Under the pieces are notes generated by a model. That model was not told the origin of the DNA and made no database searches. It worked only from the letters and a program-made list of their open reading frames with translations. Positions 42,947 to 62,955 of a stretch of DNA of 64,000 nt are shown one piece after another. Every line of letters begins with the position of its first letter. The stretch's first letter is position 1. Made by a program: the position numbers and the translations under genes. Source of the DNA: Saccostrea cucullata (Eukaryota); assembly GCF_032062105.1 (NCBI RefSeq), contig NW_026929305.1, positions 248,001 to 312,000 on the forward strand. Reading direction: 5' to 3'.

Positions 42947-42999
42947 TATGTTCCCCAAACGGAGTTTGGGAACATATTGTTTTTACTCGGTTTCTTATT

Positions 43000-44127
43000 A
43001 TTATGTTCCCCAAACGAAGTTGGGGAACATATTGTTTTTACTCTGTTTCTTATTATTATTTTTCTTCTTCCTGGGCACTTTTTTGTCCGCGAATGATCTC
43101 GTAAACTACACATCCGACTAAGGTGAAATGTTTTTAGGGTCAGTAGACATGTTATGTAGATTTGCGGAACGAAGGTCATTTTGCGCGCACGTGCTTGCAA
43201 GAGCGCGCACGTGCAACACGAGAAATGGTCAATATAATGAATATAAGCGTAACTTTTTACATTTTTGATGAAATGCTTTGAAACTGACAATATTAGGATA
43301 TATTAGTAACACAGACAATATGACATACATGTAGTCAAAATAGCAAGATCTCACGCGCATGCACGTGCGCTTTGCTCTGATTGGTTGAAACTAAAGTCTC
43401 AATATCTTTCCTGTTTTTTGACAAAATCCTTTGAAATTCTGAACTTTGCCATGCATTAGGATATTCTACAACATGATATATAGCAATTTTCATGAAAACA
43501 CGTGCATGCACGTGCGCTGCAATCTGATTGGCTCAAACTTTAAATAGCTATAACTCCCTTGGTTTTCAACCAAACAGGATGGGATTTGGAACATAGATAG
43601 ATATAATAGACTTCTACAAAAAGGTATGGTCACCATGCACATGCATACACGTGCGTGTACTTGGGCTGCAATCTGAAAACTTAAAATCCTATAACTCCCT
43701 TGGTTTTCAACTAAACAGGGTGGGATTTAGAACATAGATAGATGTAATGGACTTCTACAAGAAGGTATGGTCACCATGCTCATGTATGCACGTGCGTGCA
43801 CGTGAAATGAGTAAATTCAAAATTACACTTGAATGAGAGTATTTTTTAATACTTTTGGATTAAAAAATATTTAGTATATTGAAATATATAGATTGTGTAG
43901 ACAAGATGATATGGTCATTACGCATCTGCATTCACATGTGCACGCGTGCAATGCTAAAATTTGAATATTGGTACACTTCTGGGAAAACGTTGTTAAAGTC
44001 TCAAATGCAAAGTTTGTCTTATTTAATGAAGCTTACAGGGAATATGGCACCAAAAGGGAGTTGGGGAGCGTTTTTGGGTTAAATCTGTAACGTACTTTTT
44101 TGTCCCCGTTACAATTAGCACCTAGTT
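43000..44127 (+). mobile_element. Short HINE family B copy nested in the 5' end of the larger element
   Basis: atgttccccaaacgaagttggggaacat 5' end; degenerate 3' end tgtaacg...cgttacaattagcacctag|tt. Confidence 0.75.
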
Positions 44128-44131
44128 ATCA

Positions 44132-45060
44132 TTAAGCGCTTCCGTTCACGTGCGGAAGACGTAAATGATTGTATTGTTTCTTTTTATTATTATTATTATT
44201 ATTTTGATCCCAAATTTTGAAGCGCGATTATCAGAATGGTTGGATATTTTCACAAATTTTCACATGTTAGTAGGCTGATATATCAAGTTTATATAAAATT
44301 CCGTTTTTTGAAAAATGCGCTTGCGGTCTGAAGTTTGGCCGATTTTCTAAATTTTAAATGGACTTTTTGAATTTTTCAAAACGGGTTGAAAGGTGTGAAA
44401 TTTTCAGGATTATTAGGTCATGACATTCTTTTTGTTTTGAAGTAGTTTTCATGTGTTTCTGATACTTCCTGTCCGCACCGGAAGTGAATTTGTGTTTCGG
44501 TCAATTTTCGACTTTTTTGTTTTTCATAATTTTTTCAAGATATTTCTAGGCATAATAGAGATAGGTCCACAATAGCCAAATAAATAATTTGTTTTGAAAT
44601 CAGATCACTCCTTTTGTAGATTTCAGCTACTTTCGTTTTGCATTTATAAAATCAAAGTACTGAAAGTACTAAAGGGGCATTTCTTACTTTAAATTACATG
44701 AAGGTTACGTTTACTTTTTTTCTGCATACAAAAATCAAGACATACAGACTCATTTATATCAGGATTGAGATAACATAATTGCAATGAAAATCAAAGTACC
44801 TTAAGTACTGAGAGGACTGCTTTAGATACCAACATTTTTCTCACTAAAGTGTACATGTACATGTATGTAGTATAAACAGGCATGTTTTTCTTACACATAA
44901 ACATCAATGCATACAATAAGTTACCTATGGAAGCTTATTTTTTTCAGTCAAAAAAATCATAGTACTGCAAGTACTGAAAGGTTATTGACTATTTTATTTT
45001 ACTTTGACATATATACATCTAAATCTTTATTTGAATGCAAAAATTCATTTCATATAGACA
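44132..45060 (+). mobile_element. Truncated HINE related to family A
   Basis: 5' hairpin cttccg...cggaag, (att)n, body similar to 37980-38400; 3' end not seen. Confidence 0.55.
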
Positions 45061-59225: not shown

Positions 59226-59640
59226 TATACCCCCGCTAGAAAAGTGCGAGGATATATAGAAATCGAAATGTCCATTCGTCTGTTACGCTTTCGGGTACCC
59301 ATCTCTTTTCTGCAACTCCTCTTTACAGTTACCACTGAATGGATATCTTAAACAAAAATGAGACTTTCACAAAATCTTTGTTATATAGTGTAATTGTGCA
59401 CCTCATATTTTACTTTTTGATCGGACACATATTTTGAATTTTCTACAGCAAAACATTGACACTGCCTTTTTCTATAACATGGATGGTTACTCATCTCTTA
59501 TCCGCAACTCCTCCTACACCACTGAATAAAATTTTATGATAATTTCACAGATTCTTTATTACATAATGCCGTTGTGCACCTCCTATTATACTTAATAATC
59601 CGACACTTATTTCGGGTCTTCAAGAGCAAAACAGGGACTT
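59226..59640 (+). mobile_element. HINE-like 5' fragment with two ~190-bp internal repeats
   Basis: ttatacccccgc...gcgaggatata head; catctctt..tc.gcaactcctc occurs twice. Confidence 0.45.
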
Positions 59641-59652
59641 TGTCATTAAAAA

Positions 59653-60135
59653 TGGCTCTCACACGGTACGCCGGAGTGGGGGCTTTTTTTATTTATTCGA
59701 AATAGCTCTCACCCGGTACGCCGGAGTGGGGGCTTTTTTTATTTATTCAAAATAGCTCTCACCCGGTACGCCGGAGTGGGGGCTTTTTTTATTTATTCAA
59801 AATAGCTCTCACCCGGTACGCCGGAGTGGGTTTTTTTTTTTTTTATTTATTCGAAATAGCTCTCACCCGGTACGCCGGAGTGGGGGCTTTTTTTATTTAT
59901 TCAAAATAGCTCTCACCCGGTACGCCGGAGTGGGGGCTTTTTTTTTTATCTATTCAAAATAGCTCTCACCCGGTACGCCGGAGTGGGGGCTTTTTTTATT
60001 TATTCAAAATAGCTCTCACCCGGTACGCCGGAGTGGGGGCCTTTTTTATTATTATCAAAATGATTCTCTACCGGTACGTCGGAGTGGGGGTCATTTTTAT
60101 TTATTTAAAATGGCTCTCATCTGGTACACTGGAGA
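59653..60135 (+). repeat. ~50-bp tandem array of GC hairpin + oligo-T units (8 near-identical, 2 degenerate; isolated variant at 59180-59220)
   Basis: Unit aatagctctcacccggtacgccggagtgggggc(t)natttattc. Confidence 0.95.
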
Positions 60136-62955
60136 TACACTGTACAATAGATGGAATGTCTTAAAATGCAAACATTCTTCATTGCCTTATCTAATAAACC
60201 GCACAAGAAATAGGACACCAAAATGGTCATGCATTGGGATATCCTACAAAATGATGTAGAAAAAAAATATCATGAAATCACGCGCATGCACGTGAGCTGC
60301 AATTTGATTGGCTGAAACTTTAAATTGCTATTTCTCCTTTGTTTTTTTGACGAAATTCTTTGAAATTTAAAATATAGTCATGCATTAGGATATCCTACAA
60401 AATGATATTAAAAAAATCATGAAATTACGCGCATGCACGTGTGCTGCAATCTGATTGGCTGAAACTTTAAATGGCTATAACTCCCTTGTTTTTCAACCAA
60501 ACAGGATGGGATTTAGAACATAGATAGATGTAAGGGACTCCTACAAAAAGGTATGATCATCATGCACGTGCACGCACGTGCGTGCATTTGAAACGAGTAT
60601 ATTTTAAAATACTCTTGAAAGACAAGATGATATGGTCATAACGCACATGCATTCACATGCGCTTGGGTGCAATGCTAAAAATTGAATATAATTAGTATCC
60701 TTCTAGAAAAACGTTGTTAAAGTCAAAAATGCACAGAGTTTGTCTTATTTAATGAAACTTACAGGGAATATGGCACCGAAAGGGAGTTGGGGAGCGTTTG
60801 GGGAACATCTGTAACGGTTCCCGTTACAATTAGCACTAGTTTCTTTTTTTTTTAAACAAAATTTAATACCTGTCCAGTAACAGAAGAATTATTATACTAG
60901 AATAAAGAAAACAACTTTCTAAAGGATTGTATACATACACATTAAATTAGCTTGAAATCGGTGTACTAGTATATTGGAAAGTGCAGGAATTATTTACCAT
61001 TGCAGGTTGAGAAGGGATGCCATATTTTAGGTTTGAAACCAGGCAAGTGAAAGCTGAATTCCAACCTACTTCAACATACTTGTACCCACTGTCTTCAAGA
61101 TATCAGTGTTTGAGACGTCAAAGTTCAAATATAATAGGAACATGTTTATCATATTATGTGATGGCATCCTCAAATCTTATGTTGTATAACAATATGTTTT
61201 AGAACTTATCAAGCTTTATTCTGTACCTTGCCAAAAAAAAAACTCAACTCAGCATAATTCTCATTAACTAATTATCATTGTTACTTGCGTATGTCAATGT
61301 AGGTCATTACTGGTACATGCCTGACCAACTAAAACTCTAAAATTGAAAAATCAGAGTCAAGATTTTCAGAGCAGCAGAAACAGTAGAATTTGTCATGTAA
61401 ATCTAATGATATGTACCGTAGCTGAGAATAAATGTACTCTAAATGTTGCATATATAAAAAAGAAAAAAGCAAAAAGTTCTCTTGTTTTCAGAATTTATAT
61501 TTACATGTGAAAAAAAGAAAAGGAGGTTGATATAGTTGGTGTGATGAGATGTTGGCAGGAACCTAGTAAAATAAAAGGAAGAACTTCCTTAAAATGATAC
61601 TTGTAGGGGAGAGTGTCTCATGGGGGGATTGTTTCAACTGACTTTACAGAATACAAAAGATCCATTGCATACCTAATTATCAATTATATGCCAAACACTA
61701 TGTTTAAAGTTTTCCATTGTTGGATATTTATGTTTAAATCCAAGATAACTTACCCAAGAGGATGTGATTTTTTTTTAACCAATGTAATTTTTCTCAAGTT
61801 TAAAGCAGTGTTTCATAAGTTTTAATGAAAAAATCAGAAGGGGGAGGGGGTAAATTTTTGACTTCATTCAAAGTATCTGTGGTTTGCAGTTGCCCATGAA
61901 TTTAATAAATAATTATACAAAGCAACAAGTTGAAATGAGTAAAATATTATGAATGTCCTGCATGTTTTAGTTTCATTTCAGAATTTTTCAAGTTTGACCA
62001 AATCTTGAAAAAGTAAAAGCCACAAGGTTTTGCAATTATTTGACATAGCATTACAAAATGCAATATAATTTTGCAACATCATAAAGATGCAAATTTAAGA
62101 TGCCAAAAAATTTAGTTCACATTTACATTTAACTCATTACACATGTTTTATAAAAGAGTAAATAAGTGTAGTTTGGGAATATTGTTATGTTAAACGCAGC
62201 CATTTTGGTTAAAAATCTGGTATTCCTGTCTCCATGGTAAAAAATTTTGCATTCCTGTTTCCATAGTAATAAAGAATGGATAGGGAAAATTTTATTTCAT
62301 ATTAGTTTCAATCTAAGGAGATAGTTTCAGGAAACTTGAAACATGCCCTGGTTAGTCTACATGTACTTCAAAATTGTCAATTTTACGGAAAGGGGGGGGG
62401 GCATTTTGTGCAGGTGTTCACAGTTCTCCTATCTAAGAACATATTTACATGTATTAATGCTCTTGGAAATGGGATGTGAATATTTTTACATGACACTTCA
62501 CCTAGATATGGACTAATTTTACTGTAAATGACATCAAAACAGGTAGAAAGGAACATTTCTTTTCTATATGAACTTAATTAAATGTGCATATGTTCCTTGA
62601 AATACGGAAATTTTGCAGATTTTGGGTAATTTTTCATTAGCTTTTTTAAAAAAAAATTTTTAAGTGTCCCATAAATATTTTAATGTGTTTAAACTAACTT
62701 ATGTACCATCTATACAATGCACTGTTTCCTGAATTTCTAATCAGTGTGCAAAGTATTAAAAAATCGCTTAGAAAAAGGGTCTAAAATGGCAATTTTCTCA
62801 ATTTGGCAAAAATCCAAAATCCCCAAAGCTAAGCGTTGTTAAGCCATTATGTAGAATAACAGTTTTTAAAAAATTATGTTGTTATACTAGAGAGGAATAA
62901 TGGTAGTTTTGAAACAAAAGTAGATTTTCCCATTCTCTTGTTTCTTTTAAGCTCA

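Follow-up and report, generated by a model that had tools for sequence, protein, structure and literature searches.

A hammerhead ribozyme motif behind an intact Helentron transposase gene in Saccostrea cucullata

Which parts of a repeat-rich locus belong to the transposon whose gene it carries? The question is raised by a 64,000-nucleotide stretch of the Saccostrea cucullata genome (NCBI RefSeq assembly GCF_032062105.1, contig NW_026929305.1, positions 248,001 to 312,000 of the forward strand; hereafter the window, with positions counted from its first letter), in which a Helentron transposase gene is accompanied by tRNA-like boxes, tandem arrays, an A-rich tract and a hammerhead ribozyme motif. 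The initial annotation took everything from 42947 to 60841 for a single Helentron, an integrated system of protein and structured RNA that controls its own RNA processing, and named a smaller element as the alternative. Our analysis does not support the 17.9-kb integrated system; the smaller element fits better, and most of the remaining modules put forward are probably ordinary repeats that happen to lie nearby. What recurs elsewhere is the hammerhead, which was found behind the gene in two of 35 other Helentron families.

The gene occupies positions 51844-58623 on the plus strand (open reading frame (ORF) call and domain profile search) and encodes a Helentron (HLE2) transposase of 2259 amino acids without an internal stop. 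Its domains follow each other in the order OTU, basic repeats, Zn finger, DUF6570, HUH/Y2 Rep, PIF1 helicase and AP-type endonuclease. Profile matches were obtained for OTU (amino acids 79-168; PF02338, E = 7e-10), DUF6570 (PF20209, E = 2e-23), Helitron_like_N (PF14214, E = 9e-35), PIF1 (PF05970, E = 4e-24) and the C-terminal Exo_endo_phos domain, that is, the AP-type endonuclease (amino acids 2060-2242; PF03372, E = 3e-10), and the CxxC pairs of the Zn finger (amino acids 535-538 and 581-584) were read off the sequence without a domain call. H1028-I-H1030 and Y1235/Y1239 were invariant in an alignment of six proteins, and we take them to be the catalytic HUH and two-tyrosine residues of Rep. 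Judged by its domains, the ORF is an intact Helentron of the HLE2 subgroup with an endonuclease, as had been annotated, and its layout is a known one (PMC4067079, PMC11417382); in the account of PMC11417382, DUF6570 is a marker of HLE2 and OTU is optional. The transposase is 63-68% identical to Saccostrea proteins, 47-56% to those of Mytilus and 37-44% to fish and amphioxus members, and in a quick tree of 23 proteins it groups with Saccostrea, Mytilus and one further protein (Shimodaira-Hasegawa-like approximate likelihood ratio test support 100). Its sister family has seven copies in Saccostrea cucullata, as expected of a transposon.

Behind this gene and on the same strand lies a type III hammerhead motif (58980-59034, plus strand; Rfam RF00008 and a stem check), with a cut predicted after C58987 of a GUC triplet, 7 nt after an A-tract. 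The match to RF00008 is full-length, with 45.2 bits and E = 2.4e-7, and stays under the gathering score of 48.5. The CUGAnGA and GAAA parts of the core and an NUH triplet are present, stems I and II are closed and stem III is open. It is the only strong hammerhead in the 64-kb window, with a score of 19 in our stem-checking scanner, and at the level of sequence the motif is real, in agreement with the initial annotation. The same Rfam model gave no match in genome G001, and no ORF of at least 100 amino acids was called within 5 kb downstream of the hammerhead.

Metagenome and genome contigs were scanned for comparable loci with a broad Helentron endonuclease motif, which yielded 86 and 4 loci, respectively, and all 90 were confirmed by blastp against 120 homologues; a close-clade endonuclease pattern had no match in the metagenome contigs. 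With 22 loci left out that had fewer than 800 nt after the motif, 68 remained, which make up 35 families at 80% nucleotide identity. The hammerhead scanner was run on 599,634 bases of loci, on both strands. Two matches, with scores of 18 and 17, stood out clearly and were the only ones above 13, the next best reaching 12-13, and none of 4080 shuffled zones scored 12 or more. Both lie on the sense strand: locus L059 carries a type III hammerhead with its cut 424 nt after the stop (fold z -6.9), and locus L012 a type I hammerhead with its cut 517 nt after the stop (fold z -5.9). The endonuclease frame is open in both. The probability that both would fall by chance into the sense zone 150-1000 nt after the motif was 0.003 over all DNA and 0.011-0.013 over the downstream flank only, values that are indicative only, as the zone was chosen after the matches had been seen.

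The proteins of these loci are distant from the window transposase (at most 38% identity for L059 and 33% for L012), and the three hammerheads have nothing but the core in common, their stems being unrelated; such differences in stems and topology point to separate recruitment. The flank of L059 also contains a HINE end, which we take to be of oyster type. Recurrence in 2 of 35 other Helentron families at the same position makes some RNA self-processing plausible, and to this extent the idea of an element that controls its own RNA processing survives; the other flanking modules are unsupported as shared parts.

Rfam, applied to 34 of the 90 loci, gave only a weak HH9 match on L012 (E = 0.018) and missed L059, and is thus not sensitive for hammerheads in these loci. 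A scan for type II hammerheads gave nothing above a score of 8 in the loci, a scan for ribozymes resembling that of hepatitis delta virus gave two unconvincing matches far upstream, and a twister pattern proved too loose and gave noise; other ribozyme classes are possible. In viral contigs, no relatives were found with the Rep query and none with endonuclease alignments, and three loci retrieved by helicase alignment (L001-L003) were dropped, with 34-45% identity over a short helicase stretch only. Several loci had features of their own. In L012, a CCCH-zinc-finger-like coding stretch, read by eye, lies at about 1400-1470 in the ORF orientation, on the same strand and downstream of the hammerhead, which may separate two genes there. 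L018 carries a histone 3' stem-loop (1125-1169, plus strand; RF00032, 40.1 bits, above the cut-off) antisense to the Helentron endonuclease and near its end. In L047, L049 and L058, the Helentron ORF is directly followed, from about 720 nt after the motif, by up to 239 tandem copies of a 27-bp unit. L090-L093 are contigs with the endonuclease motif in four prokaryote genome bins, probably host contamination, and L092 is a duplicate of L044.

At evenly balanced confidence, we favour the reading that the locus is an intact Helentron gene in a pile of older repeats, whose same-strand hammerhead would cut the nascent transcript to end it; we infer that the hammerhead is active and part of the element. 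The cut would fall in the nascent transposase RNA 364 nt past the stop, behind a weak ATTAAA at 58679. It would release the pre-mRNA and give an exonuclease its entry point, speeding termination, and polymerase II would thereby be kept from the right-end hairpin and from running round a circular intermediate. In mammalian cells, as described in PMC2288634, a hammerhead behind a poly(A) site cuts co-transcriptionally and the 3' product is degraded before termination, and a circular double-stranded intermediate is described for Helitrons in PMC6431247. The element proper would extend from somewhere left of a small ORF (50885-51316) to a hairpin and T-run at about 59220. Within it, the A-tract would have arisen where an A-rich 3' region expanded locally; the tract may help to stabilise the cut RNA and would not be required.

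A number of observations weigh against this reading. No pair of subterminal inverted repeats (subTIRs) brackets the transposase ORF, only two chance-like inverted pairs being found between 44128-50880 and 58624-60220, so that any ends assigned to the autonomous element are provisional. No close relative with flanks was matched in the metagenome contigs. Hammerheads were absent from 66 of 68 loci (33 of 35 families), and they are thus not a general feature of Helentrons; outside the window there are only two cases, the 5' part of the L059 helicase is broken by stops, and the statistics of their position are post hoc. An A[AT]TAAA hexamer before all three cuts is weak evidence, because such hexamers are frequent in AT-rich DNA. 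Moreover, an overlay of sequencing contigs from four runs, three of DNA and one of RNA (X7), covered positions 58978-59644, and in DNA run X1 the summed contig depth, which is not copy number, was about 230-260 over the hammerhead core and 20 over 59070-59207. The core was thus about 12-fold deeper than the flank in X1, and deeper still in X3, and seven contigs of a core variant were present in each of these two runs. Near-identical cores must therefore sit beside other flanks, which fits other Helentron subfamilies or a separate repeat alike. Lastly, about 5000 hammerheads are described for a mussel genome and the motif is said to be common in some molluscs (PMC7229834), so that an accidental placement is possible.

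The strongest rival draws on the same observations. It holds that a small repeat unconnected with the Helentron, either akin to a retrozyme or a piece of a retroelement, landed behind the gene by accident, and that L059 and L012 arose likewise in hammerhead-rich genomes. The multi-copy core with other flanks, the lack of a hammerhead in 33 of 35 families, the density of unrelated repeats in the region and the usual occurrence of animal hammerheads as parts of retroelements, as described in PMC7761336 and PMC7229834, all favour such a pile-up. Nevertheless, all three hammerheads lie on the sense strand 364-517 nt after the stop, and neither the 600 kb of locus sequence nor the remainder of the window yielded another; two of the three are of type III, which PMC7761336 and PMC7229834 describe as mostly plant, viroid and prokaryotic; and the window hammerhead is without a tandem partner, unlike those of retrozymes. 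On balance, we consider an accidental pile-up possible but somewhat unlikely.

The contigs bear on the right-hand side of the locus as well. One X7 RNA contig with a variant core, not the window copy, begins its match at 58988, exactly at the predicted cut (22 letters from 59009; 13 of 23 places in the bin, among the loose ends listed). This start was not counted as support, one reason being that a DNA contig of run X2 begins at 58983. An X1 contig runs without mismatch over 59019-59216 and joins the hammerhead flank to a single GC hairpin with T-run (59180-59222, plus strand), the candidate right end of the autonomous element, and an X3 contig joins the hammerhead to the window's downstream flank for about 40 nt. 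Over 59208-59644, the depth rises to between 500 and 300,000 (X1, X3), as against 20 or less in the preceding flank, and a very high-copy non-autonomous repeat with satellite-like units lies here (59227-59644, plus strand). It is followed by a 50-bp tandem array (59645-60134, plus strand; hairpin z -4.4) with the same hairpin and T-run as at 59180-59222, which corresponds to the annotated hairpin/oligo-T array. An X7 contig passes from the body of the high-copy repeat into the same kind of hairpin, so that the array is likely the amplified end of that repeat. Behind the ORF of 5 of the 35 other Helentron families there are tandem arrays too, built of unrelated units, and an array in this position is therefore not special.

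A second rival assigns a role to the A-tract (58915-58980, plus strand), which had been annotated as 66 A and in fact has 63 A in 66 positions, with a longest pure run of 30. Situated directly before the hammerhead, it would, together with the cut, supply the transposase mRNA with a poly(A)-like tail and bypass the machinery of cleavage and polyadenylation. The position of the cut 7 nt after the tract agrees with this, as does the composition of the 200 nt before the L059 cut (47% A, 65% purine), 45% A being reached there in only 3 of 68 loci. However, no run of at least 12 A follows the stop in any of the 90 related loci (up to 3 kb downstream), which also leaves the poly(A) tract unsupported as a common module, and upstream of their cuts L059 and L012 have no A-run longer than 5 and 4, respectively. 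Furthermore, the ATTAAA at 58679-58684 (plus strand), with a GU/U-rich stretch after it, may serve as a canonical poly(A) signal and lies 236 nt before the tract, and a pattern of poly(A) plus hammerhead had no match in viral contigs. A templated tail thus appears improbable. We are also doubtful of a wider proposal, in which Helentrons would repeatedly have recruited ribozymes for the 3' ends of transposase mRNAs, the A-tract and cut would here provide a tail without host polyadenylation that suits circular intermediates, and a pseudoknot array in the left flank would act as a second RNA control element.

This array (48910-50090) consists of 59-bp tandem units, 15 of them canonical and one diverged, with one further diverged copy near 50040. 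As had been annotated, each unit can fold as an H-type pseudoknot, with helices of 5 and 6 bp. Among five aligned units of three unit types, pairing holds in 54 of 55 cells, and compensatory changes, which affect both helices, are seen at 3 of the 11 pairs; this covariation is only suggestive, because the structure was derived from the same sequences. Since the right ends of Helentrons are described as modules of about 60 bp (PMC4067079), the array may be made of tandem transposon ends on the minus strand. The H-type topology of the unit recurs in the DNA 3' end of the window's HINE family, and a partner end for such minus-strand ends was not found in the window. At about even odds, the array is either a series of transposon ends or an RNA element or plain satellite.

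Of the two annotated tRNA-like boxes (48440-48665, plus strand; box scan), the first, at about 48440-48510, has both an A and a B box, and the second, at about 48585-48665, is weaker and lacks the full pair. ARAGORN and Rfam called no tRNA gene in the window, and similar B-box heads occur at 39669 and 41601 inside an unrelated repeat. The two heads are probably decayed fragments of the short interspersed nuclear element type, and the annotation as tRNA-like modules was not sustained.

The small coiled-coil ORF (50885-51316, plus strand; homology search) fared better. It encodes 143 amino acids of a conserved family with a named member in Saccostrea cucullata, and eight relatives were matched, three of them at E < 1e-10; the four full-length ones begin at the same methionine. 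By these matches it is a real, conserved gene. A word-index search with the small ORF returned no match, and the Atlas held only coiled-coil look-alikes of low recognition. An AATAAA at 51628 lies 3' of it. Pyrimidine-rich, splice-acceptor-like ends precede both the small ORF (50840-50884) and the transposase ORF (51770-51815), which suggests alternative splicing from a common upstream exon.

The termini that had been claimed for the 17.9-kb unit lie in a nest of old non-autonomous copies with three 5' ends, three 3' ends and one complete copy, whose bodies are 72-87% alike. Copy A (39783-42947, plus strand) is of Helentron type, with a 5' subTIR at 39783, a 3' subTIR at 42901, a 3' hairpin and CTAGTT; a 1.9-kb element of a second family (39833-41731) is nested in its T-rich tract. 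The claimed left terminus (42948-43002, plus strand) is a lone 5' end of the same family as copy A, with subTIR, inverted repeat and T-rich tract. Directly behind it stands a complete 1.1-kb copy (43003-44127, plus strand) that has its own 5' end and 3' hairpin/CTAGTT and the features of a HINE, its 3' subTIR having decayed. A body fragment (45049-45817, plus strand) corresponds to roughly 129-961 in the 1125-bp reference copy and lacks the 3' end, and the claimed right terminus belongs to a 5'-truncated copy (60220-60841, plus strand; reference positions 448-1125) with an intact 3' end. The 14-bp subTIR is present at 39783, 42948 and 43003. Intact complements of it lie at 42901 and 60795, and full 3' ends of this family are found at 42947, 44127 and 60841. 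Hence the annotated 14-bp termini exist but are not confirmed as one matching pair, the 14-mer being multi-copy with several full 3' ends. The body pieces at 45049-45817 and 60220-60841 do not abut; they have about 510 bp in common, at 79% identity as against 87% among other copies of the family, and thus look like separate old copies, not two halves. On this sequence evidence, the outer termini would belong to a multi-copy repeat family and not to the Helentron ORF.

That 42948-60841 is nevertheless one mobile 17.9-kb unit in which all modules cooperate is very unlikely: the count of ends balances formally, with 42948 and 60841 left over, intact and free to pair, the pseudoknot covaries and the small ORF is conserved, yet the flanking body pieces overlap, the copy 43003-44127 is complete on its own, neighbouring parts differ by orders of magnitude in copy number as judged by contig depth, unrelated small inverted-repeat elements lie inside, and no module was matched in the 90 distant loci (the tRNA-like boxes and the two arrays were compared by blastn, which has little power where the proteins are 30-50% identical).

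The interior elements just mentioned resemble miniature inverted-repeat transposable elements, with terminal inverted repeats, and are located at 46599-46785 and about 47572-47940. Over 37841-45817, copies of the two non-autonomous Helentron-type families are nested in one another, each within the T-rich tract that follows the other's 5' hairpin. At the 3' end of the HINE family (42901-42934 and 60795-60828), the loop of the hairpin and a stretch of the 3' subTIR are complementary (loop 42923-42927, subTIR stretch 42908-42912), which gives the DNA terminus a pseudoknot-like form. No such complementarity exists at the second family's 3' end (about 41685-41731). Elsewhere in the window, an intact Ty3/Gypsy gag-pol ORF of 1663 amino acids is located at 27616-32607 on the minus strand (element 27119-33148), flanked by matching repeats near 27119 and 33067 that are likely long terminal repeats (LTRs).

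Compared with known systems, the window repeats at 39783-42947, 43003-44127 and 60220-60841 match the anatomy described for Cg_HINE of the Pacific oyster (PMC7492417), namely a 5' subTIR with inverted repeat, a T-rich tract, central tandem repeats, a 3' subTIR and a palindrome. They differ from it in that the window copies nest in each other's T-rich tract, the comparison with published families being by description only. The transposase shares with the Helentron/HLE2 elements of PMC4067079 and PMC11417382 the presence of OTU, DUF6570, Rep, PIF1 and a C-terminal AP endonuclease in one ORF. The hammerhead behind the ORF and the lack of a bracketing subTIR pair distinguish it from them, and the word ribozyme does not occur in the main text of either paper. 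In the literature searched, which under-represents subscription papers, we found no report that links a hammerhead to a Helitron or Helentron, and the occurrence of the motif downstream of the transposase gene, limited as it is to a small share of Helentron families, is apparently undescribed.

The hammerhead itself resembles type III members of RF00008: its catalytic core is full, the triplet is GUC, stems I and II are closed and stem III is open. Plant LTR retrozymes, as described in PMC7761336, carry their hammerheads as dimers in LTRs, whereas that of the window is single and lies in an animal genome behind a DNA-transposon ORF. Penelope-like elements, Terminons, in which a hammerhead marks the 3' end, and metazoan non-LTR retrozymes (PMC6431247, PMC7229834, bioRxiv 10.64898/2026.07.22.740005) come closer, being animal mobile elements with a self-cleaving motif on or beside them; however, their hammerheads, in these descriptions, are of type I and are found in retroelements or tandem arrays, and the one in the window is of type III without a tandem partner. 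Two candidates of this kind were ruled out directly: a metazoan non-LTR retrozyme, which would have a type I hammerhead in tandemly repeated units of 150-450 nt, by the single type III motif in 64 kb, and a Penelope-like terminal repeat (minimal type I next to a reverse transcriptase ORF) by the type III fold and the lack of such an ORF nearby.

In the literature surveyed, the small self-cleaving ribozymes of animal genomes are tied to retroelements, many of them without a known job. If an accidental pile-up were the true explanation, the locus would be an ordinary intact Helentron in a pile of repeats. If the hammerhead does end the transcript, its recurrence behind a DNA-transposon gene would give such ribozymes a concrete role and raise the question of Helentron expression, a subject that has been little studied. 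Co-transcriptional cleavage terminators and engineered hammerheads, described in PMC2288634 for beta-globin constructs in HeLa cells, would then have a natural, transposon-borne counterpart at this locus.

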